Counted from the whole stretch's first letter, positions 9,306 to 44,213 are shown. The stretch is DNA of 44,213 nt, filler included, from Jimgerdemannia flammicorona (GCA_003990765.1; 2 parts of 2 records of this genome joined end to end with filler, not necessarily neighbours in it); one strand, 5' to 3'. Program-made: numbers and translations. The notes: a model not told the origin generated them from the sequence alone.

Positions 9306-9309
9306 AATA

Positions 9310-22184: not shown

Positions 22185-23343
22185 CCCATCTTGCCCATCT
22201 TGCCCATCTTGCCCGGTTGCCTGGTTGCCCATGTCATTTTTCCCATTTTGCCCATCTTGCCCATGTCGCCCATCTTGCCATCTTGCCCGTCTTGCCCATC
22301 TTGCCCATGTTACCTGCGTCTTGCCCGTGTCATTTTGCCTGTTTTGCCCGTCTTGCCCATGTTGCCCGACTTGCCGTCTTGCCCGTCTTGCCCGTCATGC
22401 CCGTGTTACCCATCTTGCCCGTCTTGCCTGTCGTTTTGCCCGTTTTGCCCGTCTTGCCCATGTCGCCCGTCTTGTCTTGCCCATGTTGCCCATCTTGCCC
22501 ATTTTGCCAGTCTTGCCCCTGTCGTTTTGCCCGTTTTGCCCATCTTGCCCATGTCGCCTGTCTTGCCGTCTTGCCCGTGTTGCCCATCTTGCCCATTTTG
22601 CCCGTTATGCCCGTCTTGCCCGTTATGCCCATCTTGCTCATTTTGCCCGTTTTGCCCGTCTTGCCCATTTTGCCCGTCTTGCCCATTTTGCCCGTTTTGC
22701 CCATCTTGCCATGTCATTTTGCCCGTTTTGCCCATCTTGTCCATGTCGCCCGTCTTGCCGTCTTGCCCATCTTGCCCGTCTTGCCCGTGTTACCTGTCTT
22801 GCCCATCTTGTCCGTCTTGCCCGTCTCGCCCATCTTGCCCGTCTTGCCCATCTTGTCTGTCGTTTTGCCCGTTTTGCCCATCTTGCCCATGTCGCCCGTC
22901 TTGTCTTGCCCGTATTGCCCATCTTGCCTGCTTTGCTGGTCTTGCCCTGTCGTTTTACCTGTTTTGCCCATCTTGTCCATGTCGCCCGTCTTGCCGTCTT
23001 GCCCGTGTTGCCCATCTTACCCGTTTTGCCGGTCTTGCCCGTGTCATTTTGCCTGTTTTGCCCATCTTGCCCATGTCGCCCATCTTGCCCATGTCGCCCG
23101 TCTTACCATCTTGCCCATGTTACCCATCTTGCCTGTTTTGCCCGTTTTGCCTGTCTTGCCTGTCTTGCCCGTCTTGCCCGTCTTGCCCGTCTTGCCTGTG
23201 TCATTTTGCCGGTTTTGCCCGTCTTGCCCATGTCGCCCATCTTGCCGTCTTGCCCATCTTGCCCATGTTGTCCGTGTTGCCCGTGTTACCCATGTTGCCC
23301 ATGTTGCCCGTCTTGCCTGTGTCGTTTTGCCCATCTTGCCCCG
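22185..23343. repeat. 9-bp tandem satellite (consensus CTTGCCCRT) with irregular higher-order units
   Basis: Directly visible; variants CTTGCCCGT, CTTGCCCAT, TTTGCCCGT; recurrent GTCRTTTTGCC marker. Confidence 0.95.
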
Positions 23344-23505
23344 AAATTCTTGAAATCCTTGTAACTTGCTGAAACTAGAAGCTATGGCTATGCTGAAAAG
23401 ACCAGGCGGGACTCCTATATCTAAGGGATGAGGTACACCTGTTGGCGCTCCTTGGAGCCTATATTTGTGACCTCCAAAACTTGAGAAGCTCACCATCCTG
23501 GTGGC

Positions 23506-23904
23506 TTAGACGCGGAGCCAACTATTTGGTCCGAGTGAAAGGTCATCGTTCGGAGACCTTTCTTTTGTTGCCACTGACAATCGCAGGGTTTTCTGGCGTA
23601 TATACGAGCAATCCTTTCCCAAGCCGCGACATCTCGAACAGGGTTCATTTCTATTGCAAAATTTTCTACTCTTGTCACAATTATTGCAGCACTGTTTTTT
23701 TGGTTTGTTTCTTTTCAAAGGGGAAGAGTGGATATTTTGTGGTGATTCGCTAAGAAATTGAAAGCTATGCATTTGGGGATTGGTGCTTGTGTGCATATGT
23801 GCAGTATTTGGTATGTCGATACTTGTCTTCGACGACGAGCTTTTTATATCAGTTTCATGTGAACTTCGAAGGATTAAATGTGCCCCTGCCATATGATGGG
23901 ACAT
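23506..23904 (-). CDS. Zn(II)2Cys6 binuclear-cluster domain protein (short, possibly truncated)
   Basis: CNNCDKSRKFCNRNEPCSRCRGLGKDC = Cx2Cx6Cx5Cx2Cx6C, preceded by a basic stretch; start codon uncertain. Confidence 0.88.
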   Translation of the reverse strand: MSHHMAGAHLILRSSHETDIKSSSSKTSIDIPNTAHMHTSTNPQMHSFQFLSESPQNIHSSPLKRNKPKKQCCNNCDKSRKFCNRNEPCSRCRGLGKDCSYIRQKTLRLSVATKERSPNDDLSLGPNSWLRV

Positions 23905-24337
23905 GACCCAGATCTAAGGTACTGTATTGTACACAAATATGGTGCGGCGCACGTGCAGCACCAACAAATACTGCTCCGGCGACTCGAGTCTTCACAAAAC
24001 CCCCACATTTTCATATCTTTTAGGCATTCAGATACACTTATACCCTCACAGCTACACATTCTATTGTATTTGTCTCCATTATGAATGCCTATAATGGTGA
24101 CAAAGAGGTAGAGTCTGTGGTGCGTCGACTGCTATGTGTGCTAAATAGTCTTAGTGAGGTCAAACCATATAATAATACACCCTCTCCTAGTGTCAGGAGT
24201 CTTCTGGAAAATATTTTCCAGAAGACTATGATGCGTTTGGTGATGTAGATGCTTGCAACGTAGCTTAAATTATATGTTACATTTATAAGATCTATCATCC
24301 TGAGATGATAGATCTAAAATCAATACAATAAAAGGAT

Positions 24338-24421
24338 TGCTCTGAAGTGGATTCGAACCACTATCCAACTGCAACAGTATATGTGTAAATCAGTTGCACT
24401 ACCAATTTGAGCTAATGGAGC
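24338..24421 (-). tRNA. Intron-containing tRNA-like gene/pseudogene (anticodon reads TAC under canonical numbering; identity uncertain)
   Basis: A box TAGCTCAAATTGG; perfect T arm AGTGG-TTCGAAT-CCACT; acceptor GCTCCAT/TCAGAGC pairs 6/7 if two CpG transitions are reversed; ~10 extra nt in anticodon loop; T4 run downstream. Confidence 0.65.
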
Positions 24422-25435
24422 CAATTTTCTAGCATTGTGTAACTGCATAGTGCTTTCTACTAGAAATCTGTAGATTCATCAGTGGTGATTTCGGATCTAT
24501 GGATCGTTTTCGCTGCATGGATATTTCATTTGCATTCTGCTCAGAGGTGACTGGGACTATGCACACAATATGGGAAATATTCGAGTATCTTACTCCTCTC
24601 TTTGCACCATTTAGGCTTCCGTTTGTTATGAATAATTTTTTGGGGTTTAATGTATTTATGGCAGTTTTTATTAACACCGGGACTCAGTTTGACTTGAACA
24701 AACATGGGAATTGTGATCGGCTCAGATTGTCGTATATCGGTATCTATAGAAACGTCGATCACGAAATTACATCAGGCCCCCACATTTTCTGGCATGGAAA
24801 ATGAGGATTTTGGATCAGTGAGATACATGACCCATGCCTCCGCTGCCACAGATTGTGATTTTGTTTGGTAACAGCTGCGCAAGATTCTTACTGTTGGAGA
24901 TGTGGTTGACAAACAAATCATTCTTTCTCTGTTGTCGAAAGGGTCGGAGAGTGGACTGATCATATATCACTCAAATAATATCCTATGTTAAAATATTACC
25001 TAGTATAATTTCAACCTTCTAAAGCATGAGGTTGGTAATGATGATATAGTTGAATTACATTCTCTTCTCTTTATATTCTCTCAAATCAATGGTTAATTTG
25101 AAATTAGCATATGGTAGATAAAATGCCTAAAACGTATATTTGTATTGTACTAACCAAAACCTACTTTATATTTCTAACTAAATCTTGTTTTTTTTTTGTT
25201 ATTCTAATAAAATCTTGCTTTTCACTAACCAAATGCTGAATTTGTTTTTATGCTACTAAGAGTATTTCATTCGGATTATGGACTAAACGAAATTTGAACT
25301 CCACCCAGGATACTGATGATATCCAACTTGATCCTTTTGGATGGTATTTGACTAATTTCAGATCTATCAGGACCACTGCAATTGCTCTCTAGTTCGGCCT
25401 GCGAGGCAGTGCGATGGTGATCCTTCTTTGAATCG

Positions 25436-25990
25436 GTGAGCAACTGGTTGGGCAGTTTGGCGGTGGGCAACTGGTTGGGCAGCTTGGTGGCAAGCAACTG
25501 GTCAGACGGCTGCTTGGCGGTGGGCAACTGGTCAGACGGCTGCTTGGTGGCGAGCAACTGGTTGGGCAGTTTGGCAGTGAGCAACTGGTTGGGCAGTTTG
25601 GCGGCGAGCAACTGGTTGGGCAGTTTGGCGGTAGGCAACTAGTTGGGTGGCTTGGTGGCAAGCAACTGGTCGGACGGCTGCTTGGCGGCGAGCAACTGGT
25701 CGGACGGCTGCTTGGCGGTGAGCAACTGGTCAGACGGTTTGGCAGCGAGCAACTGGTCAGATGGCTGCTTAGCGGTGAGCAACTGGTCGGGCGGTTTGGC
25801 GGCGAGCAACTGGTTGGGCGGTTTGGCGGCGAGCAACTGGTTGGGCTGCTTGGCGGCAGGCAACTGGTTGGGTGGCTTGGTGGCAAGCAACTGGTCAGGC
25901 AGTTTGGCAGCGAGAAACTGGTTGGGTGGTTTGGCGGTGAGCAACTGGTTGGGCTGCTTGGCAGCAGGCAACTGGTTGGGCTGCTTGGCA
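25436..25990 (-). repeat. Coding-type tandem repeat of mixed 27/30-bp units (AKQPNQLLA / AKQPSDQLLT) within a probable spliced pseudogene
   Basis: Core GCAACTGGT repeated about 19 times; ORFs 25639-26079 and 25276-25638 share a frame across one TAG. Confidence 0.85.
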
Positions 25991-27134
25991 GGATGCCTCT
26001 CAGTGTCAGAGTCAGATTTGAATTCTTCACTGTTATTGATTTCGAATTGGATCGGTCTTAGCATACTCTTGCAATTCAAGCATGAGCAATGGAATCAATT
26101 TGGATATAACTCGAAGTTAAGCCAAATGAGGTACTTTTGGAAATTCCCTAGAAATGTGATAACCAGTATTTAGTTTATTTCTAAAAGGAAGTAAAACATA
26201 TGCAAATATAGTCATACCAAACAAAATATGCTGTCTCGATGGATGTCCATAAATTGTCAGATACGATTGACCAATATATGGCCCGGTTTTATGCTGCCGC
26301 TAGTACCAGGAGTACCCCCTTGGGAGTTCTAGTAGAATGCGACCTAAACATAGCATACACAATACATCAAAGCTATAGAATAATATAACAATTCATTCAT
26401 AGGTATTTTGATATTTACGTGTATTATTCTCCTTATGATATATGGCGAGCATGTTTCCCAGACATACCATTCGATCAGGGTCGTGGTGCTCTACCATATC
26501 GGCGCATCTCGGATGCATATATGTGCCATCTGAGTTGGCAGGCGGATCAATCGGGGTTGAATGGGTGGATTGTTTATGGTGAGGTTTGATGAGCATTTTG
26601 TTTGATAAAGAGAAATTGTAATTTAACCATATATTTATATCATTTATTTCATATATGTCAATCATTTCGCATAGGTTTCCACCAATGGTGAGTCATTGAT
26701 CACTTATCAGACGTTTTTGATCATGTTAATTACATTGGTGATATACGTATGTAGTTTTAATATATGACTCAGTATTATCATGAATCAGCCATATTAATCT
26801 TCATTTTCTAGTTTGAGTAAGAGTCTTAAAAGCTTTTAATATATGCATAAACCTGCTTCATGCAAGAATTACATTCTTCGTTCTCAACTGTAATATAACC
26901 TGTAGACATACATATGCAACCCTTAATCAGTATCCTTACAATTAATCAGTGATACTATGGTGTATGCTTTTGATGTAAGTTTGTGAACATACATATTATA
27001 CAATATATATTGCATATATTAATTTCACTAGGAAAGTAAAATGATTGAGTATTAACATCTAAGTGATAAATAAATTTAAATCATGTGAGTCTATCATACT
27101 ATAACCTATGTGTTTGAGTCCCATCCAACATATG

Positions 27135-27297
27135 GGTACCTTTTGTTCTTTGGCATTTTCACTTTCTTGGCCTCGGCCATCTCCCCCATGAGCACCGGTT
27201 CAGGAAGCTGTGGTCTGTTGTCCAGAACGACGAAGCACGATCATATGGGGCTGAGGTCACTGAAGAATGCCTCCAGCTCAGCGCTCGTCGCATCATA
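27135..27297 (-). pseudogene. Isolated RRM fragment resembling RRM1 of Nop4/RBM28
   Basis: YDATSAELEAFFSDLSPI*SCFVVLD...KNKRYPYV; S and * revert to G and R by single CpG transitions; GC-richer than flanks; family assignment from memory, not a search. Confidence 0.65.
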
Positions 27298-28757
27298 GAT
27301 TTATGGCAATACTGAGATGATTGATGTTAATGAGTTAGCCCAACCCCAAATTGATCACCCCATGTGTATCTAATGATCTGTCGAAAGCGAATTACCCCCC
27401 CTCTGTTGGTGATGGTATAAAATACTGCATGGAGATGGCTCCCACTGCTGTATCTCCCAGTGAGTCCGCATGTGCAGGCTTGTTGACTGTAGTATTTTCT
27501 CACTCGAGACTATGACTGAACATCAATTGTAATTCTGCCATTCAATATACTTCCTCTTACTCAATACTACTGATTGAACTCACACTTTATCGCTTTGGTT
27601 ATCTCCAGATATACGGAAACAGGCAATATTCTGGCTAGTACTAACCCCATAGTATGACTATGGTCGAGTGTCCTGTTGTCGTCGATGGTGAATACGTACT
27701 CCTTCAGCGTGAACTGCATGGTGTCTACATCCATGGCCTGTCAAATGACAGATATGGAGATGTGGTACAGACGAGTCTGCAGAATGCCTGTATGATCAGC
27801 TCTGGATTCGGTCTCGCCACAAGGCACTGCGCAACGTCTGTAAGTATTGGTGAAGATTTCGGCACCCAAGTTGGAGTTATAATGGAAGTAAGGTTGGTGG
27901 TTGTCATTGGGTCTGTACGTTTAGGTGGCGAATATGGGGGGGGGGTATGCTCGAAGAATGGCTATTCGAGAAGAGGTTTGGGCGCTGTTGTTTCATAGGA
28001 GACAGATGAGCGTTCATTCACTTTATATTTTACCGAAATCTACTATGTTTGAGATGTGTTTTGAAACCTCTGCATATCCCTTAGTTCCTTCATTACCAGA
28101 CGAGCAAGAGCTCTCTTTTATTTTAGTGACCTGTGTAAGATATATATATAGTTGTGATGTCAGCTCATAGAAAGTATATTTCATCTGCATACAAAGTAAT
28201 AATATCAATTACCATTTACTATAAGTGCTATTAATATGACTCCTAATGTGAGGATATGTAATCACATGACAGCATACCTTTATTAGTGTAATATAATCAG
28301 TCTAATTACAGTCCCTGACACTGAACTGTATCAACATTTGTTTATTATGGAGGACATTCTCACCAGGTTCTGTACAGTCATATGTCCATCCCTCCCTCTC
28401 AATCTTTGCGTGCCCTTCACATCTGCACTCTCCCAATTTGCTGCTGTCATTGCCCTCTGTGATTCCTTGACAGACATCGCTCTTGTCCACAAATACTTGA
28501 ATGATGGTGTCATTGTACTTGTTCACTCCCATGAGATTAAAACTCCCACCCTACAAGGAGTGATCATTAACAGTAACGAGACTACTACCAAGATACCAGA
28601 TGGGCCAAAAATAATCTCTAAAAAGTGAGCGCACAAAACCAAGCTAAAAGGTTAGTCTATCCTATATTTTATTAATGTAAACAAATATAATGCAATTGAT
28701 CACTTATGTATTTTCTTTTGAGGGAGTCTAGGTGTCAATAAACAGGGTGTAAAACAT

Positions 28758-29213
28758 GTGCTCGACAAGAACACATTCATCAAGGCTGTCCAAGATGCCC
28801 AACATCTTGTCAAGGACTCCGAATTTGTTACAACAACCCTTCCCATTACTGAAAACTGTACTCTTGTTGAGATAGAACGTTATCGTCACCAATCTAATAT
28901 AGGCACGACACATGGCCTAATTGTTCAATACCTGCTTGGCAGACATGTGGACCGAATTACCAGAGAGCTACCAGAGGGAACGAGAGCGACTCGAGATGCG
29001 GCGTTCAGCAGACAATATCGGACAGAAGCAGGTCTTGATTATTCTGTGAATATTAGGAGTCAGGTACACCGATTGCGACTTGTTTACAGTATTTTAAAAA
29101 ATCTTACTGTAAGGGAGGTCTTGGCAATTCGTGGAGTTGTAGTATCACATTTATTCAATATTAGCCATGATGAGGCCAGACAGCTCTGTGTTGTGATTTC
29201 TAGCAAAATATAA
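28758..29213 (+). CDS. Hypothetical protein, probably last exon of a spliced gene
   Basis: 151-codon open frame with protein-like composition; no recognised domain. Confidence 0.45.
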   Translation: MLDKNTFIKAVQDAQHLVKDSEFVTTTLPITENCTLVEIERYRHQSNIGTTHGLIVQYLLGRHVDRITRELPEGTRATRDAAFSRQYRTEAGLDYSVNIRSQVHRLRLVYSILKNLTVREVLAIRGVVVSHLFNISHDEARQLCVVISSKI

Positions 29214-29446
29214 ATGTATATCTATTCCACATGTAAATTCGGGGAAAGTGCAGTTGTGTGCCCAGTGGGACTGGTGTGCACCCATGATTGTCTACGCACA
29301 ATCCAGGATCATTATTATCAAACAAAATAATCTGATAGTTTCTTTGTGGGGTTTAAAAATAGTATTCACTGTTGTACGTCACTCATTTATTCAATTGATG
29401 GCAAGTAGTTCTGAGTTATCTAGAAACTAAGATACTAACTATTTGT

Positions 29447-29800
29447 TCAGATATCATATGGGCTTGTTGTGAATAAATCTGTATTATCTAGCTCCATGAT
29501 GAGCATCCATTCAGAATTGACCCCAAGACTCTCCATCGTAATGCTTTCATTATTCATGTCAAAGTTGACAAGAGATGTGCCATCCATTCTCTTCAAGATG
29601 AAATTGTCTCCTTTGGGATTGTGGTCTGTCTCGAGGGTGTGGAGCAGGCAGCCGATGTCATTGGAGGTTTCGATTTTGAGTAGATGTGTTGTTCCGTCGA
29701 GCCATTGAATGTTGATTGTCACAAATTTTCTGCTCGATGTATCGGCTGCTTTCTGAACTTCTGGACAGAATTTTTTAAAATAATTTTGTTCAGATGCCAT
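29447..29800 (-). CDS. Small ubiquitin-like/UBX-like beta-grasp protein, copy A (intact)
   Basis: VTINIQWLDGTTHLLKIETSNDIGCLL..FILKR..ITMESLGV..MLIME resembles the UBX/UBL pattern; duplicated at 41969-42325. Confidence 0.65.
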   Translation of the reverse strand: MASEQNYFKKFCPEVQKAADTSSRKFVTINIQWLDGTTHLLKIETSNDIGCLLHTLETDHNPKGDNFILKRMDGTSLVNFDMNNESITMESLGVNSEWMLIMELDNTDLFTTSPYDI

Positions 29801-29893
29801 TGTTTAATGAAGGAGTGAGTGGTAAAAAGCGTTTATTTATATTGCATCCTATTGACAGTAACAGTCACATATATGTTTATAACATAAGTATCA

Positions 29894-29948
29894 GGGAAAG
29901 TGCATTCATGTGGATGGGATAATCCTGTCCACGTGAATGCACTTTCCC
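29894..29948. repeat. Long palindrome family, full copy 1
   Basis: GGGAAAGTGCATTCATGTGGATGGGAT-A-ATCCTGTCCACGTGAATGCACTTTCCC; mismatches explicable as CpG transitions. Confidence 0.95.
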
Positions 29949-30199
29949 CAATGACTGCAGTTGTGTGCCCAGTGCGCCCATTACATGGGACTTGGACGAT
30001 CAAGCATATACTTTATAAAACATCGACTATACAAATTCTCTGAGTCGTATTTTGCGATGATTGTATAATGGATTCATCTCGAACGATGTAAGTAATTGTC
30101 TTGAACATTAATTTACAATATTCTATCACTAACACCCATTGTTATTATTTATTCCGAAGTCCATACTTTTGTTTCTATAAAAAAATGGAGTAAATTAAA

Positions 30200-33100
30200 T
30201 TACGATATATATAAAATGCCAAATATAATAATATCATTTACACTAACCTTTTCCACTCCGCCTCCACTGACTAAGGAATTCATTCGTTTGGTTACAGGAA
30301 AGGGTTTTATAGTTTTAAGTATCGCAATTACCTCTTCGCTGAAAAAAAACCTAGCATTTGTACTATCAATCATAATTGTTAGCTCCTGCGTCTCCTCATT
30401 ATATCCACCGACAATGGTGGTCTTGGATAGCTGGACAATTAGTATACTGATGGACGATATGACATTAGGTGGGTATACATCTACAAGATATTGCAAGATC
30501 TGCTCCCTCTCCACAGTGTATGATGCAGGCTGCTTTTTGTTGGTGAAAAACATTTTGGGTGATGTAGTCTTGATAGCTGGTTCAGTATCGATTGTCAGAG
30601 AAAACTTGGCCTGTACAACTACTGGAATGCGTGTTATATTGTCATCACTGCTGCCATCCTCTGGTGGATGTACACAAATAATGAATACGACATCAGGACC
30701 TGTCTTTTTGGGTGGCATGAGAAATGTCTCACGTGGGTCCTCGAGATACAACAGCAGATTGTCCCTTCCACAGAGATTCTCAGGTTTGGTATCACTGTGG
30801 TGTCGAAGAATGGTAATCTGGCAGGAGAATACCCATGCAAGCCACTCGTATTTGCTAATGAATTGCTCGAACAGAGGATGGACATCCAGGCGTGGCTTCG
30901 AGTTCCATGTGTTGTCAAACAGATCGAAGAGTGGCTCGAGTAGATACCGTTCAAAGAGATCGCCGAGATGTTGAGGCGCCCAGCGGGCCTGCCCCATCTT
31001 CTTGAGCAATGTCTGGCTGATGGTCAAGCTGTTACGTGGGATGTCATCACCATCAAGGCCATCACGAATGAGACAGAAATATGCCATTGCTGCCAATGAC
31101 TCTGATAACCCGGCCACCACTACCACTGTACCAGCCGCACCATCATCGATGCTGACGAGCTGTGCAAACCCATGCTCCACAGCAAGCACCTCTTCTTTGG
31201 GGATGACAATGCTATCTGAAAATGCATGGTAGTTGAGCACCGCCTCCTCGATGACCGGCCATATTTTCGACTGCTCGCATATCAGCGAGAGACAGCCCTC
31301 CAGCTGAGTGACCAGGAGGTCCACCGTGCTGTTACGCCAGTATCGAATGGTCGCATTTGTGACTGTATCTGCTTCTATAGGCCCTTGGATGGCATTTTCC
31401 AGGAATCAGACAGTAAACCAACAATGGCCACGGAGATAGTCGAAAACAGACTCGATCTGATTGTCGGTGAGTGGCCTGAGAAACTGCTCAACAAATGCCT
31501 GCATCTCTGCAATGTTATCGAACAGTGTGTGACACTGATAAAATATGTCTTGTCAATCGATGCCTTTCCAATTGTGCTCCCTATCGCATCCATAAGATGG
31601 TCGATGTGAAGTCCTGTCCCCGCGAGTATGGTACATATGACACTATGTCCACCGACGATTCCCATCACGGTGTGCAGAAGTATTGTGAAATATGAGCATT
31701 TCTTCGTAGTCGATGTGGTAGAGGGATATATGTCCTGCTGCTTGGCGATGGCAATCTGCGCCTCATCTATTGCAACAGGTATCTTCGTGGCTTTGGTGTG
31801 CTCCAGGATCGTGTCAACAGTCTTGATAATATAGGTTTGAATATGGTCAGTATCTGAGCCTGCGAATATTTTCCAGAGATCAATCCAGAAGTCAGGAGGG
31901 TCGATGCCGACACTGCCTGGCAGCAACTGCATCAGAAGCCATATCTTTGGTGTGAATCTGGATGACCGCATTTGTGTAAGCTTCTTGAGGACATAGAGAC
32001 GTGCCACCAACACCACACGGGCCTTGACGAGTGCTTTGGCATTGTTACTTTCCAGTTGGTCACCCCATAGCCATGACGAAACGGAGGCTTTGTCCAAGTC
32101 TCTGGACCCCAGATTTCCATCAACACCTCCGGCATTGAGTGTGAGATATATGCCGAATGTCCAGCAGAACAGTTCATAAATGCTATGCGTTTTCCCAGCT
32201 CTGTTGATGTTGAATAAATATAAATTAGAAAGAGATATATGGTATTTATTGAATGCCAGTAAAATGAATACTTACCCAGATGTTCCAATCAGCATGAGCC
32301 ACACCTGCTTCAACATCCGGTCATGCAACTCACCAAGCTCATCTCGACTGATAAACCCCGAGTCATCTTTGCCTTCCAGTAGCGAATGCAATATCAACGA
32401 AGGCGTTCTTCCACCATTTACTGTAGGTATCCTGGCATTGTTGATATACATGGCACATGGATGATTTTCTGTCTGATACAGCTGTAATGGGAAGCCATTG
32501 GCGATTATCGATTCAAACGTCAGTCACCACTCATGCCATTGGGCATCCGCTCTGGCTCGGATCATTTCAAATAGGGCATCAATCTTGTCATCTACAGCTT
32601 CAGTCAACGCTGCTGGCAATGGTGTGTCTATTGCAGTATAACATAACACATAGAAATTGGGGGTCAATCTCAATGGACTCTATCATTTTTAAATATTGTT
32701 CACTTATAATATGTTAAGTATTATTTATACTAATATACAGCTATTATAATATACATTTCACCGTGTGTGTTGTTTCATCCGAGTATAAGGACATTTCAAA
32801 TCGCGTTGTATTGGTAGACATAACCTCCCTCCATACCCCCGCACAGCATTCGTAATCAAAGTCACCCTCCAGAGACTATCACCATGCCACCTATTGTTGA
32901 CTATATTTGTAGCCTTTTTTTGTGAGAGTACCAGCATACCTTCAATAGTGCGATTCAGAGCTCCCAATATTGACGGTCTGTGTGAGTTGTCTGTGGGTAT
33001 AATAATGATATTGTCAGTATATAATATATAATACATTTTAATAGTCAACAATTTCAATATCTAATCATTACCTACAAGTACTTGTGCAGTCAATCTGACA

Positions 33101-33462
33101 ATGGATTCAGTGTATTCAATAATGACATGAATGTACTCATCATTGAGAAGATCGGGAAAGCACCTCTGTACTTTGAACAATACTGGTAGTTCTTCACCAC
33201 CTAATACCTCAATGATGGCGGAGTTGGGGTTGGCTTGTAATGCAGTGAGCCTATCGTTCAGCGTATAGAGGGGTATGTTGACCTTCCAGAGAGTGAATTC
33301 ATTGATGGCGACATGATCAAAGTGTGGGACTAGCTTTGCCTTGATATGTTCTCATAGATTGTCAATACTGGCATTTTGGTGAATTGTAATAGAAAACATA
33401 TGTCTGGAAGGAGGGGTCTCGCCGTAGACAAGACAGTTGAGCATGATGTTATCGGTTGATAT
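30200..33462 (-). pseudogene. Crinkler (CRN)-type gene: ubiquitin-like header, P-loop NTPase, PD-(D/E)xK REase; spliced, disrupted
   Basis: LNCLVYGE..F.I.I....IDNL*EHIK...FTLWKVNIP...IHVIIE header; Walker A GTSG/AGKT split by an intron (~32207-32275); Walker B PVAIDEAQ; GPDVVF...VVQAKFS. Confidence 0.88.
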
Positions 33463-33829
33463 TCTGTATATAAATGGTAGACCTTTATTAGTATTGGTAT
33501 AAAGTTCTGGTAGAAATGTGTTTGGTTTATACAACTTACTGTAGTTGTGATTGTCGCGTTATCAAACCAGTTGTGGATTATGTATTAACTAAAGTGGCTT
33601 GGTATTAAAGTCAACAAATTACTTGGAGACATCATGCATTCCTTATAACAGTCTCACTTATAATTAGATGAGTCCAAGCCACAACTGAACCACCGACACA
33701 AGATGGACATGTCCTGTTGTGGAAACGTAGTGGCTGAGACAACCGTATCCAACAACTGTTTTTGTATAAAAATAAATTATATAAAGGGCATTACCACATA
33801 TAAATAATTGTATCCTCTGTCTGTGTGCC

Positions 33830-35166
33830 ATGACTCCAATTTCTGCAGAAGTCTTCCTAAACATATACATCCTCCTCAATAGAAGATGTGATATATTTGC
33901 AATCTCTCTTGTCTGTCGTATATTCAGACAATATACCAACCTGCCTCTGGCACAGGCACACTTGCTTGTTACACTATTCGGCAACACCATGTCTCTGGCC
34001 TGTGGTATTGCACTGCTTCCACATCTCATCGATGATAAGGTGTGTGAACTGCTTGAACACCACGGTGCAATAGTCATATCCCGCATACTGGAGACAGCCT
34101 ATTCCACCTCAGTTATTGATGATGAGACCAAGCAAGCAATTATCGAATGGTTTGCCAGATGCCAGATCGTGCTGCCCATGGACCGTATCTGGCTCAGAAT
34201 TTGTACAGAAATGGATGCATAGACAGATGCTCACTCAGCAGTAGAGATACCGTATGACAGTCAAGCTGTAAAAGACTTCATCCAATACATGGATGCTGGA
34301 GACTTTGTCCCAATCCCTTTCTTCAAGTACCATATGATTGAGGGAGAGCCTGCACAGTACTGGCAGATACTTAACGAACTGAAATCAAATGGAAGTTAGG
34401 AATCATGGATGGATCTTCTCTGTCTTGCAGCCATCTTGGCCCCTGAGGCATTGGAGAGAGCAGTCAGTTGTGAATACAGAGTGCCAGACTGGCCTGGACA
34501 GGATGTGTTTGAATGTCTCTGTGGTGCCGCAATACTGTATGGTTAGAGACAGGAGCCATGATGACAATGCTTATCGAGTATGGGCTCATGCATTTGGATG
34601 ACGAATACATTACCCAACGTTCGCTTACACCAGAATGCAAAATCGTCTTTCACTATATAACAGCGGAAAGCTGTATACCAGCCATCAAGGCAGCCACTGC
34701 AATTGGAATTGAGCAGTATGTTGCTACATTTATGACACAAGATGAGCTTGATGATGAAACAATTGAATACATGGAATATCTCAAACCGCAAGTACTATCG
34801 TGCACATCTCACATAAGGAATGCAATTGAACAATATGTGGTGCCAAACCACAGCAACAGCATGCCTGGGAAAATCAGATATACTCGCATACTGAACCAAC
34901 TTGCATTGTGGATACTGGAGCAATGGCCTCGTCCTGGCCATATCACCAGACTGGTCTTCGACAATCTTGTATTAAGCATGACCAGAGGTCTTGAGATGTC
35001 AGATGTTGTATCAAAATACCTTAAAGGAGGGTACATATTCTCTGACAGACATCGAGAGTGGATTACCAACAGTCCAAAAAATTTGGCGCTCGTGACAAGC
35101 TGGAGGAGCATGAAGACACAGCCACCTATATGGCTGTGGGCCCAGCAGGGTAGCCTCTGTAAATGA
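33830..35166 (+). pseudogene. N-terminal F-box-like protein, apparently intronless, with stops and a frameshift
   Basis: ISAEVFLNIYILLNRRCDIFAISLVCRIFRQ fits the F-box consensus; frame continues past TAG at 34220 and shifts near 34540 into ORF 34513-35166. Confidence 0.65.
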
Positions 35167-35533
35167 GTAAATAAATGATTTGCCCCATGTGACGTGTGTT
35201 CCAATTAGAGAGATATACTATAGTCGACAATTGAGTTTATTAGATGGCATCCCCATTACTATTTAGTAAGAAAGAGTCAAATAATATCTGAGCGACGTTT
35301 GCTGACAAATGAGTTTATTGTAATTTTACATGGTCGCATGTTCTCGAATATGTGACATCTCACCACCCTCCAATACTCAGATAGGACACAACAGATGTTG
35401 TTGACATATAGCATCTGCAAGAAGGAGCAACTCACGATATCACAGTAAATAAGTATGATATGTGGCTTGGTATCATGTGCCCCAACAGAAGACATATAAA
35501 ACTAAATACATACTTTGGTACATACACCTAACC

Positions 35534-36551
35534 ATGTCTACTAAATGTCTGCAAAATGCTCAGGAGTGCTTCTGCACCCTGGATGAATATCTCGAAGAAT
35601 TGATTACACGATGTCTAGTATCTAATATGCCATTTCCAAACACGGATACCACCTTCTATGCCTGGCTCAAGGAACTAATTATATCAGTTCCTATACAGCA
35701 GGAGCTGGTAAGCTATAGACTTTATTATTATTATTATTATTTTGCATCTTCTTTGTCATCCTTTATTCAATTTCTGTCCGCACTACTCACAGGAGCCTGA
35801 AATATCTACCCCCATACAATATACCCATAAACATCCTTGTGAAGAGGAGGGGGATAGTGGTGAAGGTCCATCTGCTCCAAAACATGCTCGCTTTGAAAAG
35901 GTATTCCTCTTTTTCCTAGATCCTAATTATATCAGTCATTTAGTAATATTCTGGTATATTTTATAGGATTTGTCATCGCCCCCTCCCCGCCACCGCCACT
36001 GTGGTATCTTGAAGAATATACAACAAGTATTTCTACAAACTGATAGAAGCCGGTCTCCAACCCCACCAATCTATGAGCCTACAGAGGATGAGCTAGCCCA
36101 GACGGAGTCCTTCAGGACTACTGTTATGGAGGTGGTAGCCAATCCCACACCAGTCCAGCTGTCTACTCTGAGGGAAAAATACTCACCGGACACACTTAGC
36201 GGACTGTTTGGCTCTGTTCCAGCTGCCCTGAAAACAGCTGGTGTATCATTCCCTTCAAGTGATCTTAAGGGTACTTTGGATCAACTGATTGCAGTAAAAA
36301 AGTTTCAATGCTCACTCAGGGGACCAGAAAGAGCTCGCTATGAACAGTAGATCAGGTAATGCTTTGGTTTGAAAAATTTAATCTTTCTTACAAATGTGAT
36401 GCTTCCACCAAATTTTGATGCTCAGGTAGTAAAACATGAGTATGGGGCACTATACTCTTGTGTATGCATTGCATATGAGCTGGCCCGCACACTACCTGCA
36501 ATGCCATTTTATGTAGTAGTTGACAAGAAACTTGTTATAATAGATACATAA
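35534..36551 (+). pseudogene. Three-exon hypothetical gene with premature stops
   Basis: ATG 35534; GTAAGC..CAG intron (~35707-35791) and GTATTC..TAG intron (~35901-35967) join ORF pieces in frame; stops near 36348 and 36357. Confidence 0.55.
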
Positions 36552-36732
36552 CAAATTGTATAATTTCAATAGATAGATTCCTATAGTATTATATTGTCTG
36601 TCAGTTCAGTACAATTGATATAACAATTTTCGATAACATACATCTTATTCATCAATATTCCTTAGACTGCTGAGACACTTCAAAAGAGGCTGTTTTAATA
36701 GTTTTAGAAACACCCGATGATGATGGAAAGAA

Positions 36733-37807
36733 CTAGGAAGAACACGAAGTTGTGAAGGGTCTCATCAACGTGTCCTTGTTTAAGAGACCTCTCCATGCAA
36801 TGTCTCCTGCTTCAAAATCACCAACAAGACTAATATCATCACAGTCTGAGCAAGTACCCCCTAAAATGTAATTTATTGTATAGCTGCACATTTCCAATAA
36901 ACAAGTACAGTCTATCAAACTATCTGTGAATGGGTGGATGGCTTGCTCATGCCAATCATAGGCCACGACACTCTTCACACTTCGGTCTGCATTCTGGCTC
37001 ATCTTCGGTGACTCTTGGCAGCCAGAAGGCATCAATGAGAGCGAAGTCTGTACATGCCTTTGCTAGACTCCATCGGTGGTCTACCTCTGGATGAAGGATT
37101 CCACGTATGAACTCGGAAAACACAGGAGTGTAGTTATGCTGGAATGCGCTATCATCATTTAACACCTCATTAATGATTGCCTGTTTACTACTGATGATCG
37201 ACACTTGGTTCATAAGAACTTGGTACAGACTGATGCCGAAGGACTGCACGTCGTCTTTTTCCAGGTTGAATCACTGCTGTGTATTGTATTCTTTACCAGC
37301 ATGAATTGTTGTACAGTCAAAGTCAAAAAGCTTCACCTCTGGCATGTTGTCTGGGTGGAATGTGTAAAATATACTCTGTGGCTCGAGGTTGTGGTGGTAG
37401 ATGCCACATCCATGAAGATAATATAGAATGTCGAGGACTTGGGAGAATATGAATTTGATATTCATTTGTACGTTGAGGTCATCCACCATAATCTGACATT
37501 CGCCCTCCTTTGGCATGGACATGAATTGACTGTATAAAGAGCCAATCACGGGCTCCATGAGTAGGTATATTGCATTCTGATCTTTGTGGTGATGAATAAC
37601 CCTTCTGATGTTGGGATGTTGGGCTGCTGGAAGGTTGTTGCCAATGCACCAGTTGTCGACAACCTTTAGAAAATGCACAGTTCCATCACTTGCTCTGGTC
37701 TTGTATATAGCGCTGTTCATCCCCTTGAGGATGGGTTCACCAATGATATTGACACCAAACATGAGGGCACTAGCATTCGGCTGCAGAGGTTGTTCACGAC
37801 ACAGCAT
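36733..37807 (-). pseudogene. Compact intronless Ser/Thr protein kinase-like gene with Cys-rich tail
   Basis: HFLKV, HPNIRR, IYLLMEP, YLHGCGIYHHNLEPQSI, VKLFDFD, DVQSFG, ILHPEVDHRWS; in-frame TGA at 37271; probable frameshift near 36960. Confidence 0.85.
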
Positions 37808-38214
37808 TTGGAATGAATATCGATTGCGCAGTGTGTTTCAATAGCAGTATGAGTTGGCTATTTATTCACTTGTAAACCAAACAATAAATGGCTATATCTA
37901 GTAGGTTGACATACACTGTAATATATTTAAATGCAACTGTATTTCTCCTGGGTAGTTAAGTTGCAGTTGAAACAAAGAAAAGCTGTGCTACCTTTCCAAC
38001 ATTGTATCATATATGGAGATTACTCATTTATAGTATATGAGCATCAGCAACAACGAAATAGGACTATTGCTGATGTTGTATTCTCCTGGATAACAAATGA
38101 TAGCTACTAGATTCAGATTGTAACTATATTTATTCAAATACATTTACTAATTATATTGTTATAATATATATACTTGAATATTTGTTGTATTAAATGTGAT
38201 AGGGTATTCATTGT

Positions 38215-38847
38215 TCATGGATCATCTATAGTTAGTTCTCCATCATCATACCATTCATCCTCAAAGGGTTTATCATCATCAGACCAATCATCGTAAAAGG
38301 TTGGTTCTTCATAGCCATACCAATAATCCTCAAAGATTTCGCCATCGTCATACCAATCATCCTCAAAGGTTTCGTCTTCATCAGAACAATCATTGTAAAA
38401 GGTTAGTTCTCTATCAGTATACCAACTGTCTAGGGTTGGTTCTCCATCATTATCAACAATTGGTGGTGGGGATTGAGGACGAACACAATTGGGATATCTC
38501 CAATTATCGTCGTCATCGTCATCAGTATCATCATCGTCGTCGTCATCGTTGTCATCGTCATCATTGTTGTTGTTGTTATTGCTATGATTGGGGACATCCC
38601 CATTGTGTTCGTCATTGTCGGGGTTATTGTTCGTATCAGCAGTGCACTGGATTTGGTCGAGATGTATGTCACGGGCTTGTATAATGTTGATATAGATGAT
38701 TACACGGAGCTGGGAGCTGGCACTTGGTTTTGATGGAAAACCAAAGGATTATGATCAGAGAGCTGGTTATTCTGTAGACAGTTTGCATATTTGCTGTTCT
38801 GAGTGTTGTAAGTCCAGAATGAACCTTTTTAACCCTTTGGTCATCAT
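38215..38847 (-). pseudogene. Highly acidic low-complexity protein with repeated Trp/Tyr-Asp motifs
   Basis: One frame with three stops (TAA, TGA, TAA) then a poly-N/D tract and repeats such as FEDDWYDDGE, FEDEWYDDGE, TFYDDWSDD. Confidence 0.5.
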
Positions 38848-39915
38848 TGGTTTGAGTACTTGTTTGGCCAAGATAGGGGGTTCGACTTAAATGGTACTGA
38901 CTTTAGCATCTGAGAAGATTTCTCAGTATTGTACAATTATAGCAACTTCATGTGAATAATATAGATGGAACCTACGACAACAGTGAGATTTATACAGCAT
39001 ATCTACTATATTTGCCCTCTGCCTCAAATATAGATGTGTGAGACAGAGGTACTGTTGGGACTTTTATACACAGTGATAAGTATATACAATAGACTCCGAC
39101 ATATGAGTTCAGAACAGAGTCTCTTGGACAGTGTGAGACCTAATTTATTTATAAATGGTATAACCTAGTTTGGGTTGTGTCAAGCGCAGTTTAAGCCTCT
39201 TGTCAAAACAGTCATGCAGAGTTCTGACATCATCCTTTCTTTCTACAAAACAAACTGTTCAACTAACATGTCACTGCATCCTACACTGACAACAACTACT
39301 ATTTCATTTGGTATGAAATAACCCCTCTTTAATCTCTTTAATCACTACAACTACCTCTCTCATTACTAATCACTCTCATGTTTATACCTCTTTCTTAGAT
39401 TCTACAAGAATTCACCCAGCATTCTTCCAACAGCAATGTCAACCTGTTGCTTTCACCGCTACAACTACAATAGCTAGTTTAGAATATAATGTTGCCAAAT
39501 TGAGCCCCATCTTTTTTGGGTACCCGACTACACCAAGCAAGAGCAGTACTCACTCAAACAATAAATATAGGCTGTGATGTCGAGTTGCATGTTGATAGTA
39601 TCCATTTTGCAACCACACTGACCACTACTACCACAGCACTTTATACTTGTATTGTATGCATATAATACGTTTATTCGATAAATAAAACATAGTTATTGGC
39701 TTAAAATTTTGTCCTTCCCAATTGCTGTCACCTTGGCAACAAACATATCTGCTGAGGCGACATCCAATTATACTGAGGTGTTGACTTTGGGTGTCAATAA
39801 TAGAAATATGCTGAGTTTCTTGATAGATTACACATGACGGATAAATGCCAGCCAGTGTAACCCTGGGCAAGTAATGTTGATTCCAAATTAGTGATATAAT
39901 TGTTCCAGGCCCACT

Positions 39916-39961
39916 ATGTCATTGTCGGGAAAAGTGAATGCACTTTCCCCGACAATGACAT
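39916..39961. repeat. Palindrome family, centre-deleted copy with different outer arms
   Basis: ATGTCATTGTCGGGAAAAGTG-AATG-CACTTTCCCCGACAATGACAT. Confidence 0.9.
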
Positions 39962-40913
39962 CACCAGTAGTTGTGATGGTCACCACCCAACGAATATTTA
40001 CAACAATTCGAATTTATTAGTAATTGTGCTAGAGCTACCAAACTTTACATCGTAAAGTGAATATTGACTGCTTATTTGGGTTGAATAATGAAAAAGGGGT
40101 TTCTCGTTCTTTGCTTGTATACATAGAAGTGTCGATGGAAGAGATCTTGTGATATGTGACTCAGATTCGGAAATAGGCTTCCACGTTGATGTTGTTAGTG
40201 ATATGTTACACATTATGCAAGTCAAGTATTTTGGACGACCGTCACAGTAATGCAATAGATGATCAGCTTATAAGTCGCTTGTTACAATATGACAACTCTT
40301 ATAAGAAAAGCCTTATATTCAACAGCATTTATGCCACTAAACACATTGACAAGAGGCTCTCACCTGGAGTTGTGTGCCAATGTATATGAAGCAGATGAGG
40401 TGTCAAGGTTCTCTATATATCCATTGGATAAAGAACTTGAATGAAGTATATGCATTCATATCTGATGTGTCAGACCAAGTGAGCTCCAAAATCTGTGCAA
40501 TGCCGACTAGTTATGATACTGATTTATTGCATGGGGTAATAATCTCTGACAACACTGGTAGAAACACCACCAGTGTTGTCTGTAAACTGCGCTTTTGCAC
40601 GGCAATAAATGGCTGATGCATTTTTGGTTATGTTCTTTGTTTGTCCCCCTTATATATGCCTTTTCATATGTCATCTGTTCATTTTGACTCTGGTTTTGGG
40701 TTCGCTCCCTTGATACCTGCTACCTTCTTCCTCCTCCATAAGCTGGGTAATTGAATCTCTCACTAAGTTTGTGTTGTCGGCTTTTATCTATAAAGATTAG
40801 AATTAGTAGAGTAAACGATTTGTTTTACATAGTTATATAAATCATTGCCTGTGAGGATAATGATATATTATGGAACTTGTATTGTTGTCTGTAAACATTT
40901 GCTTATTAGTAAA

Positions 40914-40965
40914 GCAACTGATTTTACACATATGCTGATAGTGGTTCGAATTCACTTCAGGGCAA
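40914..40965 (+). pseudogene. Degenerate second copy of the tRNA-like sequence (inverted relative to 24338-24421)
   Basis: GCAACTGATTTTACACATATGC-TGATAGTGGTTCGAATTCACTTCAGGGCAA matches the anticodon/intron and T-arm parts of the first copy. Confidence 0.75.
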
Positions 40966-41067
40966 ATATATTTTATATTGATATAATAGATAGAGAATAC
41001 AGATACGTTTATCGATAATGTTTTAGAATATACATCTCCTAAAACATCTCGACAACAGAGCATTGTA

Positions 41068-41532
41068 TTATTTACATGGTTTGAGCTCACCGAGCTCATT
41101 TAGCATACAAAACAGTTGACGCACTATTGGCTCTGTTTTTCTATCATTTATATCAGCTGATGCAGCAGCAACGCCATCAGTATTTAGTGCTTCGATATCC
41201 GCACCATTGCGAAGTAGAGCAATGAGTATAATAGCATCTTGCTCATCTCTGGTAGTGGTGGCAGTAATATTTGGAGTGTGTATGTGTTCCTGTAGCATTT
41301 CAGGTAACAACATCCACTTTTTGAGCATTACTACAGTATTATAGAAAATATGACCAACAGCTGTGTGCAATGGCGTATTGCCAAACACATCTGGGTTACT
41401 CAGCAAGGTTGCATCAATCAATGCTTGGATGTTTTCGATGTCACTACCTCTAATTGCATAGTGTAGTGTATAGTGCTCTTTAACTGTAGCGCGTTGGGCA
41501 TCAATTGCAGAACGTCAGACACCGCGATCCAT
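41068..41532 (-). pseudogene. Small ankyrin-repeat protein
   Basis: TLHYAIRG, DVFGNTPLHTAV, LLRNGADIEALNTDG; ATG 41532 with in-frame TGA at codon 6. Confidence 0.85.
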
Positions 41533-41700
41533 ATTTGCAAAGCCTAGAGTTGATGTGGAGTTGGTTAAAAGCTAAACAGGATGTATGCTAATTGAAATAT
41601 TATCTATACAGGATGGTCTTGGTATTCACGTAATATTATTTAAGAGTGTGACGTCTCACAAACACGTGAAGGTTTGGTAATCACAGACAATACGTCAGCG

Positions 41701-41761
41701 TTGGGGAAAGTGCATTCACGTGGATGGGATTATCCTATCCACGTGAATGCACTTTCCCCAA
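41701..41761. repeat. Long palindrome family, full copy 2
   Basis: TTGGGGAAAGTGCATTCACGTGGATGGGAT-T-ATCCTATCCACGTGAATGCACTTTCCCCAA. Confidence 0.95.
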
Positions 41762-41968
41762 TGACTGCAGTTGTGTGTCCAGTGGGACTAGTGTGTGCCC
41801 ATGATTGTCTACGCACAATCCAGAATCATTATTATTAAATAAAATAATCTGATAGTTTCTACACATTGTTTGTGGGGTTTAAAAATAGTATTCACTGTTG
41901 TACATCACTCATTTATTCAATTGATGGCAATTCTGAGTTATCTAGAAACTAAGATACTAACTATTTGT

Positions 41969-42325
41969 TCAGATATTATATGGGCTTGTTGTGAATAAAT
42001 CTGTATTATCTAGCTCTATGACGAGCATCTATTCGGAATTGACCCCAAGACTCTCCATCGTAATGCTTTCATTATTCGTGTCAAAGTCGATAAGAGATGT
42101 GCCATCCATTCTCTTCAAGATGAAATTGTCTCCTTTGGGATTGTGGTCTATCTCGAGGGTGTGGAGCAGGCAGCCGATGTCATCGGAGGTTTCGATTTTG
42201 AGTAGATGTGTTGTTCCATCGAGCCATTGAATGTTGATTGTCACAAATTTTCCACTCAGTATAATGTTATTCTGACCTTTATTAAGGTTTTGACAGTATC
42301 TTTCAAAATAATCTTTTTCAGCCAT
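41969..42325 (-). pseudogene. Ubiquitin-like/UBX-like protein, copy B (TGG to TAG stop)
   Basis: Near-identical to 29447-29800 from KFVTINIQ onward; stop at 42029. Confidence 0.75.
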
Positions 42326-42409
42326 TGTTTAATGAAGGGATGTGAGGTTTGTGGTGGTATTTATTTATAATACACCTATTGACAGTGACAGTTATGTACA
42401 TGTTTGTGA

Positions 42410-42487
42410 CGTGAGTATTGGGGAAAGTGCATTCACATGGATGAGATTATCCCATTCACGTGAATGCACTTTCCTCGACGCTCATGT
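42410..42487. repeat. Long palindrome family, full copy 3 with extended decayed arms
   Basis: CGTGAGTATTGGGGAAAGTGCATTCACATGGATGAGAT-T-ATCCCATTCACGTGAATGCACTTTCCTCGACGCTCATG. Confidence 0.92.
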
Positions 42488-42809
42488 AATTGGGAGGAAG
42501 TCCCCATATTCCCACGCTGTTGTGAATCATCAAACACACCGTCTAGCCATGAACTCCAACCATGACCTGGTCGTGATTGAATTACCACACCTTGTCATTG
42601 CAATCACGACACCACACACACTATTGCCACATGTCCCAATTCTGTAATTACCGGAAATTGGTATTGTCCAGGAACTGGAAGGAGTTTAGATGAGGGTTTT
42701 GTATACCCAATAATATATTTATTTATCAAATGTGAAATCGGCCTTTTATTCCATCAAAGGAGGAAATATAAATAAGCAGTGCAGCCATGACAGAAATCTC
42801 TTTCAAATC

Positions 42810-43590
42810 TTATGGATATATAGTATCATAATAGGTGCTGACTACAACAGATTGTTTGGGCTTGCTACACCAAATTATATTGCTATACTGTTTGGCATTA
42901 TACCATTCCAAAATGATGTCATACTTCCATTTCTCCTCATCAAACATACACCACACTGCACTGGGGCAAAACTCCTCAGCAACCAGAGTCAGCATCTCAT
43001 CACCCTCGTCCTCGACATCGAAAACGGGGTGAATCTCCACATTAAGCCCCAGCTCAGTCACAATGGCATACAGCGTGCGATCACACCCCTGGAGTATTTT
43101 GGGAAATGTCATCGTAAATTCCTCTACTTTGCCATGGTCTGGTGTGAGTGGATATGCGTGTTGTAAGCCAAAGGCAAGCACACCACCATTGGGCATGAAA
43201 CCCACACAGGTGATAGCTGTGTTGAGCATCTTGTACAGTAACAGATGTCCGAGATTGAGGCTCGATGTTGTTGGGATGTCATGGTGTAACATAAGGTTGT
43301 ACGTGAGCATGATACCAAAGCCAGATGTGAGTGGATGGATGGTGTATGGACATTTCTTGCGGAATGCTGTCCATTGGATCTTTTCAGCATCCTTTGACCA
43401 GTCAAATAAGTTGGTAGTGTTCTTGTATCGCACAATGAGTTAGCCACCACAGCAGGTTGTTGGCGGACAGACAATAAGCAAAAGGTCACCATTGTTGTGT
43501 AGAGTCTCGTAATATGTCCTTCCATGGGGTGTGTGGATGGTGAGTTTCAGTAGCTGTGGAATGATAGTTGCATTGCCTGGGGCCATATGT
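42810..43590 (-). pseudogene. Fungal-type 2OG-Fe(II) oxygenase-fold gene lacking catalytic residues, 5'-truncated
   Basis: LLKLTIH..LLIVCPPTTCCGG*LIVRY..FDWS..IQWTAF..IHPLTSGFGIMLTYNL..FMPNGGVLAFGLQHAYP..LQGCDRTLY follows the family pattern GGxLxVRH..FDWS..IQWAAFYSDCEHEVxPVTSGHRxTLTYNL (recalled, not searched). Confidence 0.75.
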
Positions 43591-43593
43591 TAG

Positions 43594-44213
43594 CAGTAGT
43601 GCATCACAACTCGAGCCGACCCATGTACATATTTAACCTGACCCGGAATTATACGTCACCCATCTTTAACCCGACCCAGAATTATACGTCACCCATCTTT
43701 AACCTGACCCGGAATAATATGTCACCCGTCTTTAACCTGACCCGGAATAATACGTCACCCGTCTTTAACCCAACCCAGAATTATATGTCACCCATCTTTA
43801 ACCCGACCTGGAAACATACGTCACCCGTCTTTAACCCGACCCGGAATTATACGTAACCCGTCTTTAACCCAACCTGAGAAATATATGTGACCCAACCCGA
43901 GAAATATACGTGACCCGACCCTGACCCATATTTAACCCGACACAGACCTGTCTTTAATCCGCCTTTAAGCTACAAGGCACCAAAAAAAATATATTGCACA
44001 TCTAAGATATATTTAGAATAAACAAACAGAAACATAATTAGGAATCAGAAATCAAAATGAAATCGGAAATAAATAGGAAGTAAATCAGGAAAATAAAGAA
44101 CTTACCGGTGTGAACAGATCTTACTCTTCATCGCTATAAACCAACTGATCCTCCTCTTCATCGCTATAAACCAACTGATCCTCCTCCTTCTCATATTCTG
44201 AATCATCTTCCTC
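43594..44213 (-). mobile_element. Possible terminus of a DNA transposon (hAT-like) with subterminal repeats
   Basis: Oxygenase homology stops near 43594; TAGTGCATCACAAC then ACCCG repeats; minus-strand acidic ORF end EEDDSEYEKEEDQLVYSDEEEDQLVYSDEE* (stop 44121-44123); other end not in window. Confidence 0.4.
43632..43965. repeat. 33-bp tandem repeat (7 full copies, then degenerate), ACCCG-rich
   Basis: Consensus TTTAACCCGACCCGGAATTATACGTCACCCGTC, units starting 43632, 43665, 43698, 43731, 43764, 43797, 43830. Confidence 0.95.

Follow-up and report, generated by a model that had tools for sequence, protein, structure and literature searches.

A probable decaying cluster of Crinkler, kinase-like and other multi-copy paralogues on a small, repeat-bounded contig from Jimgerdemannia flammicorona

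What kind of locus places Crinkler, kinase-like, F-box-like, ankyrin and tRNA-like remnants side by side in the genome of a mycorrhizal fungus? The DNA considered here (the window, 44,213 bases in all) consists of two pieces, 22,057 and 22,056 bases long, with an artificial spacer between them, and the features in question form a dense block that spans nearly the whole of the right-hand piece (22158-44213; Table 1). An earlier note on this DNA had read the block as possible cargo of a giant mobile element or of an endogenised DNA virus, a reading that we find unsupported, the searches having yielded no viral relative, marker or transposase domain. We conclude instead that the block is probably a decaying cluster of paralogues and not a working system, the paralogues belonging to lineage-specific, multi-copy families that lie in methylation-prone repeat DNA.

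The history that we propose begins with a block holding such families: a Crinkler (CRN) gene and a second relic of its C-terminus, a degenerate kinase, an F-box-like gene, the open reading frame (ORF) of a short repeat unit, an ankyrin fragment and a Zn2Cys6 ORF. As repeated DNA, the region would probably have been cytosine-methylated and silenced, a step that we infer. What the sequence does show is an accumulation of C>T and G>A transitions, with CpG as the site of about half; they created TGA and TAG stops, which along with frameshifts made pseudogenes of at least five gene-like features.

Broken genes, their relatives and their mutations

The kinase-like gene is the most instructive of these features. 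Read through its in-frame stop over 36959-37807, with X at the stop, it scores 51.5 bits against Pfam Pkinase, bearing out the earlier identification, and the ORF at 37274-37837 (-) also lies above the Pfam cut-off. The read-through is identical at 269 of 269 residues to P0022, a kinase-like protein of J. flammicorona in NCBI, and because of this identity the right-hand piece can be assigned to that species (Endogonales, Mucoromycota), of which it appears to be one whole small contig. The reported identity between P0022 and the window is 95%, a value that arises from a 14-codon gap in a 283-column alignment: the public model drops 14 in-frame codons around the TGA as a 42-nt GT..AG 'intron'. 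Since those 14 codons are coding in three paralogues, the annotation appears to hide a pseudogene behind an invented 42-nt intron, and the case shows how a public gene model can mask a premature stop.

Paralogues of the kinase occur on four other J. flammicorona contigs, namely P0023 and P0027 (88%), P0024 (58-63%) and P0025 (50-54%). At the site of the TGA, P0023, P0024 and P0027 carry Arg and P0025 carries Pro. We considered TGA as a sense codon and rejected the idea, given Arg in three of the four paralogues and Pro in the fourth, and given the TAG and TAA stops in other genes. In the window gene HHN replaces HRD and DFD replaces DFG; most paralogues likewise have HHN (HYN in P0027, QYT in P0025) and DFD (NFD in P0027), so that the HRD aspartate and the DFG of an active kinase were found neither in the window gene nor in P0022-P0025 and P0027. 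Because these substitutions run through the family, we predict its members to be inactive, lineage-specific pseudokinases, and the locus documents the loss of catalytic motifs across a kinase family. P0022-P0025 and P0027 also share a conserved C-terminal WLPRVTEDE motif. Metagenome contigs searched with the kinase alignment gave no match.

The CRN gene is likewise what it had been taken for. Its Crinkler N-terminal domain (PF20147), with the stop read through as X, reaches 60.5 bits (E 2.9e-16) and spans all 106 positions of the profile, and the ORF at 33064-33351 (-) exceeds the Pfam cut-off even without read-through. Three in-frame TGA stops (33352-33354, 32524-32526 and 31406-31408) interrupt it, and near 31520-31550 its frame is shifted against that of all relatives. 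An additional TAA at 32272-32274 is not a break but part of a genuine 75-nt GT..AG intron (32201-32275), which splits the Walker A motif between GTSG and AGKT; the motif is uninterrupted in relatives such as P0005, so the intron is verified by homology. The gene is of spliceosomal, cellular type, and the description of many genes of the block as intronless, though partly right, does not hold for the CRN, which has spliceosomal introns.

In the C-terminal part of the CRN, P237-D238 and Q265-x-K267 are invariant in all eight aligned sequences; at the level of motifs, these PD and QxK elements resemble PD-(D/E)xK nucleases, and no Pfam family names this part. A full HMMER scan of 1.84 billion representative proteins with the 401-aa C-terminal ORF returned 19 relatives at E<=0.001, while a search for relatives of near-equal length returned none. 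Names are attached to 12 of the 19, all fungal (three from J. flammicorona, seven from Entrophospora in the Glomeromycotina and two from the chytrid Rhizophlyctis rosea), the other seven being unnamed. The three C-terminal paralogues elsewhere in J. flammicorona share 34-45% identity, and a search of metagenome contigs with the CRN alignment gave two short matches at 29% identity, uninformative on synteny. The window itself holds a second, degenerate copy of this C-terminal part, absent from the earlier list of features, with 26-33% identity to family members and E values down to 1e-14 (tblastn). The locus documents, in Endogonales, Crinkler genes that combine an NTPase with a nuclease-like tail.

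The F-box-like gene has a paralogue, P0026, of 88-89% identity on another contig, which reads Trp and Gln where the window gene has TAG (34220-34222 and 34397-34399). The label F-box itself could not be upheld: the Pfam F-box-like match has E 0.095 and 12.9 bits against a cut-off of 24.3, and a PDB sequence search with the N-terminus returned nothing meaningful. A similar outcome applies to the two ubiquitin-like (UBL) genes of the earlier note. Two copies there are, forming units of about 0.7 kb identical at 627 of 682 aligned bases (92%), but the ubiquitin-like identity was not borne out, since the ORF has no match in Pfam or PDB and a single-sequence AlphaFold2 (AF2) model of copy 1 is unusable (predicted local distance difference test, pLDDT, 37.8). 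The ORF of copy 1 is open; in copy 2 a TAG, at the position of a Trp codon in copy 1, truncates it. Read off the alignment, the copies differ by five residues in 72 aligned codons with about one silent change, and thus would give no sign of purifying selection.

It might be argued that these genes are functional, that their breaks are introns, assembly errors or sites of read-through, and that we are looking at an ordinary, expressed cluster of fast-evolving genes. The public annotation does call the kinase protein-coding, the TAA of the CRN does lie in a genuine intron, and the Zn2Cys6 ORF is open, as is that of UBL copy 1. Nevertheless, the codons removed from the kinase are coding in three paralogues, the stops lie within conserved parts of the coding sequence, comparison with relatives reveals two frameshifts, and the UBL copies give no sign of purifying selection; we consider a functional cluster quite improbable.

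The stops themselves carry a signature. They interrupt frames that relatives read through, as seen for the kinase and F-box-like genes against their paralogues, and all six in the CRN, the CRN relic and the kinase are TGA. TGA is the sole stop that a CpG transition can create. The proposition that nearly all genes of the block were broken by C>T-type stops stands for the CRN, the CRN relic, the kinase, the F-box-like gene and UBL copy 2, and was not shown for the Zn2Cys6, acidic and ankyrin ORFs. Compared with P0023 and P0026, paralogues 88-89% identical, the window genes have 58 residue differences in 504 aligned codons, of which 47 can be explained by one transition (in 23 cases at a CpG), nine by a transversion and two by more than one step; at 33 of the 47 transitions it is the window that holds the T/A state. 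Transitions also account for 44 of the 55 differences between the UBL units.

Dinucleotide frequencies agree with this. Observed/expected (o/e) ratios across the block are 0.55 for CpG, 1.38 for CpA and 1.34 for TpG, and CpG o/e ranges from 0.26 to 0.93 across all 21 tested block features, genes and spacers together, while around SRP14 in the left-hand piece CpG o/e is 1.02, with no excess of TpG or CpA. The block therefore shows the CpG deficit, TpG/CpA excess and transition bias by which decay through deamination of 5-methylcytosine (5mC) is recognised. The pattern is that expected if methylated cytosines, mainly at CpG, had been deaminated in silenced repeats; methylation-driven CpG decay of repeats is treated in PMC13297926. 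Classical repeat-induced point mutation (RIP) of the ascomycete type was also considered, and rejected on the dinucleotide indices of 23001-44000. Such RIP raises TpA/ApT and lowers (CpA+TpG)/(ApC+GpT); the values here are 0.46-0.95 and 1.11-1.77, the second running opposite to RIP.

Several points weigh against this account of the block. Since about half of the transitions are not at CpG, deamination of 5mC at such sites cannot be the whole explanation of the spectrum. Visible decay is not universal either, the Zn2Cys6 ORF having a CpG o/e of 0.93 and an intact, if small, frame. A single region of 1.85 kb, on a different contig, serves as the sole unmutated control, and a CpG o/e of about 0.5 might thus be common in the genome. 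Paralogues known as annotated proteins only will tend to be intact copies, a bias that inflates the asymmetry of 33 in 47. The single short-read assembly may hold errors, for instance at both frameshifts. Finally, the silencing of the block and its true copy number are things that we infer.

Viral or mobile origin

The Pfam scan bears most directly on a foreign origin. From 23300 onwards, 133 stop-to-stop ORFs of at least 55 aa overlap the right-hand piece, and 130 were scanned (E up to 0.05), the three left out being frames of the 9-bp tandem array. Among the 130, the matches at or above Pfam cut-offs were to Zn_clus, the Crinkler N-terminal domain, Pkinase and Ank. No intact housekeeping gene was found among them and no hallmark gene (capsid, polB, A32 or recombinase domain), in agreement with the earlier note on both counts. 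More broadly, none of the 130 carries a domain of the Nucleocytoviricota markers (major capsid protein, PolB, A32 ATPase, VLTF3, D5 primase-helicase, RNA polymerase), and none a transposase, recombinase, integrase or reverse transcriptase domain.

Could the contig nonetheless be a fragment of a giant DNA virus (Nucleocytoviricota) that was endogenised and eroded after its integration? Giant viruses commonly carry kinase, ankyrin, F-box-like and tRNA-like genes, and word-indexed searches found the kinase and F-box-like families solely in this species. Fungal genomes can indeed harbour giant endogenous viral regions, among them one of 1.5 Mb in Rhizophagus irregularis in which some genes bear introns (PMC10640383, PMC13533422). 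Beyond the missing markers, however, IMG/VR searches with the CRN and kinase alignments and with the oxygenase-like, F-box-like and UBL ORFs returned no true relative. A single match, L001 (a phage contig with a 104-aa ORF), was examined and set aside as chance, having the seed peptide alone in common. The relatives found for block genes are fungal, not viral, the named relatives of the CRN being fungal only, and the CRN has a verified spliceosomal intron; moreover, 22 kb with no replication, transcription or virion gene would be unusual. A 22-kb fragment could lie inside a giant viral region, yet the evidence points to fungal, intron-bearing, multi-copy genes, and we regard a viral origin as highly improbable.

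More can be said for a mobile element, that is, for the contig as an internal fragment of a large multi-copy element carrying a cassette of CRN, F-box-like and kinase genes that was later silenced, whether as a cargo-carrying transposon or as a composite unit spread by flanking transposons. Several genes of the block have paralogues of similar divergence (88-89%), and a contig of 11,291 bases carries a paralogue of the CRN C-terminus (P0006, RUS28849) and one of the kinase (P0023, RUS28851), two accession numbers apart, recalling the order of CRN and kinase in the window. The block's contig breaks at tandem repeats, and a CRN-like gene is reported to amplify through adjacent transposons in teleosts (PMC12957317). 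Yet P0006 is only about 36% identical to the window's CRN C-terminus while P0023 is 88% identical to its kinase, and the two loci are therefore no straightforward copies of a single unit. The F-box-like paralogue lies on yet another contig, no terminal repeats of the block were seen, and none of the mobility domains named above occurs in the 130 ORFs. A mobile element of this kind is, we think, unlikely.

A variant of the same idea would see in the contig the dead copy of a composite selfish unit of several kilobases, made up of a 'toxin-like' Crinkler NTPase-nuclease, an F-box-like gene and a pseudokinase. Such a unit would have multiplied in the Jimgerdemannia genome, either autonomously or carried along by repeats (the 0.7-kb unit between palindromes being one example), until cytosine methylation shut it down and it was mutated. 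Were this true, an early-diverging fungus would harbour a genomic parasite built around a Crinkler; we hold it improbable. Near-perfect palindromes of about 53 nt bound the UBL unit (29895-29947, 41705-41757 and 42422-42474); copy 1 has lost its left palindrome, and beyond its right one the unit begins again over a length of about 27 nt. This arrangement suggests a hairpin-plus-body repeat.

We return to decaying paralogues. The block's DNA is repeated, at least in parts. The earlier proposal that the whole block was silenced and mutated as one repeated or foreign unit survives in so far as the DNA is repeated and transition-mutated, as paralogues, two UBL copies and CpG decay indicate; since the block fills an entire contig and tandem repeats lie at both ends, its being one unit, and where such a unit would end, cannot be judged. 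Blocks of this kind in repeat-rich early-diverging fungi are usually decaying paralogue clusters, and recognising one here removes a tempting false lead, namely that a mycorrhizal fungus carries an island of giant-virus or giant-transposon origin.

Limits of the contig and remaining features

The limits of 23400 and 43590 given in the earlier note do not mark the ends of an element; they are the inner edges of tandem arrays (22185-23317 and 43628-44186), and the arrays at both ends of the contig are where the assembly broke. The left array, 1.1 kb in length, repeats the unit CCCGTCTTG and leaves several frames open; on the minus strand it would encode Gly-x-y (GKT/GKM) collagen-like repeats, with Pfam Collagen under its cut-off. 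The array follows immediately downstream of the Zn2Cys6 ORF, whose frame it continues beyond a single TAA.

Table 1. Features of the window, with positions counted from its first base
Feature	Position	Strand	Match or basis
Artificial spacer (44 N, TTAATTAATTAA, 44 N)	22058..22157	.	
9-bp tandem array, ~124 copies, left end of right contig	22185..23317	.	
Small Zn2Cys6 ORF, six Cys as C-x2-C-x6-C-x5-C-x2-C-x6-C	23509..23913	-	Pfam Zn_clus
tRNA-like relic, 12-nt insert in anticodon region, three unpaired acceptor-stem pairs	24338..24421	-	Rfam RF00005
Second, degenerate CRN C-terminal nuclease-like relic, two in-frame TGA	24547..24978	-	tblastn with family members
27-bp tandem array, ~20 copies, 9-residue repeat on - strand, upstream of CRN relic	25434..25989	.	
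UBL repeat unit copy 1, 118-aa ORF 29450-29803, ends in ~53-nt palindrome 29895-29947	29249..29947	-	
Crinkler-family pseudogene	30200..33444	-	Crinkler N-domain, P-loop, PD..QxK nuclease-like C-terminus
F-box-like gene, two TAG stops and frameshift near 34540	33830..35166	+	weak F-box match
127-aa ORF	35967..36347	+	sub-threshold matches only
Kinase-like gene, in-frame TGA 37271-37273	36956..37807	-	Pkinase
Acidic repeat-rich ORF, 33-nt repeats, D/E/W/Y-rich, no in-frame start codon	38218..38748	-	
Ankyrin-repeat fragment, 148 aa, TGA upstream	41071..41514	-	Pfam Ank
UBL repeat unit copy 2 (41766-42474), palindromes 41705-41757 and 42422-42474, ORF 42032-42328	41705..42474	-	
ORF with lead to prolyl-4-hydroxylase-type 2-oxoglutarate (2OG) dioxygenase, TAA at 43440-43442	42813..43589	-	language-model lead only
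33-bp, 23-bp and 30-bp tandem arrays, right end of contig	43628..44186	.	

Most of the smaller features proved to be what the earlier note had called them. The Zn2Cys6 ORF narrowly exceeds its Pfam cut-off (Zn_clus, E 1.9e-4, 21.9 bits against 21); the ankyrin sequence does so as a fragment (24.1 bits against 21.1); and the tRNA-like sequence scores 31.9 bits against 29 in Rfam, as a relic at which ARAGORN calls no tRNA. The acidic repeat ORF was also found as described, with W-Y-D-D-G-E-like units following a poly-Asp/Asn tract and no family match. The oxygenase fold ascribed to the last ORF was not recovered: language-model leads connect its part at 42813-43439 with a cluster named prolyl 4-hydroxylase (feature score 0.95), and the ORF with another cluster in which 11% of members carry PF13640, while Pfam and PDB searches returned nothing and the single-sequence AF2 model is unusable (pLDDT 29.1).

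The left 22 kb were considered as genomic context for the block and rejected, being a separate contig. That contig is nearly free of CpG from 1 to 20496: its first 20,000 bases contain eight CpG where 778 would be expected. After 18054, the first CpG falls at 20497, one base into an SRP14 ORF (20496-20936), whereupon o/e rises to about 1.0. The CpG-free part holds retroelement relics on the minus strand (RVT_1 at 1221-1397 and 7028-7450, dUTPase at 2487-2828). It is also asymmetric between strands, with 34% C and 12% G at 6000-11000 (GC skew about -0.5) and 11% C and 25% G at 15000-20000 (about +0.45), which exceeds what CpG loss alone gives.

Comparison with known systems

Fungal giant endogenous viral elements, such as the 1.5-Mb region of R. 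irregularis and the Mycodnaviridae of zoosporic fungi, resemble the block in their dense, small ORFs for signalling and repeat proteins, their pseudogenes and their possible methylation (PMC10640383, PMC13533422). The block differs from them in that neither a marker gene nor viral relatives were found, and in the spliceosomal intron of its CRN, a gene whose named relatives are all fungal. From a giant cargo-carrying transposon of the Starship type or similar it differs in that no recombinase or transposase domain was found in the contig.

The CRN of the block also resembles AACRNL, a selfish CRN-like gene of teleosts amplified by neighbouring transposons: both are Crinkler-like, occur in a non-pathogen, are multi-copy and sit in repeat-rich DNA (PMC12957317). 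Unlike in AACRNL, the C-terminal module in the window is an NTPase with a nuclease-like tail, not an ADP-ribosyltransferase, no flanking transposon was identified, and the copy is dead.

A classification of CRN C-terminal modules is reportedly given by Zhang et al. 2016, 'Transposons to toxins'. With the Crinkler family at large, known from oomycetes, chytrids and Glomeromycotina, the window gene shares a full N-terminal Crinkler domain, a modular C-terminus in which a P-loop NTPase motif is combined with a nuclease-like PD..QxK motif, and a multi-copy, divergent representation within one genome. It departs from that family in being a pseudogene with three stops and a frameshift, not an intact protein, and in the rarity of its C-terminal family, whose 12 named members among 19 all come from early-diverging fungi. 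Its host, J. flammicorona, is mycorrhizal and not a pathogen (PMC12574304).

As a process, the decay of the block is most like the 5mC-driven loss of CpG in the transposons of Basidiomycota and in vertebrate genomes, with the same CpG deficit, TpG/CpA excess and dominance of transitions, and with Arg turned into TGA in the kinase. It differs from that process in that about half of the window's transitions lie outside CpG, and the left piece is far more extreme than the block. Partial here and near-total on the left contig, such strong CpG-directed decay suggests a role for cytosine methylation in shaping the repeats of a lineage in which discussion usually centres on N6-methyladenine (6mA).

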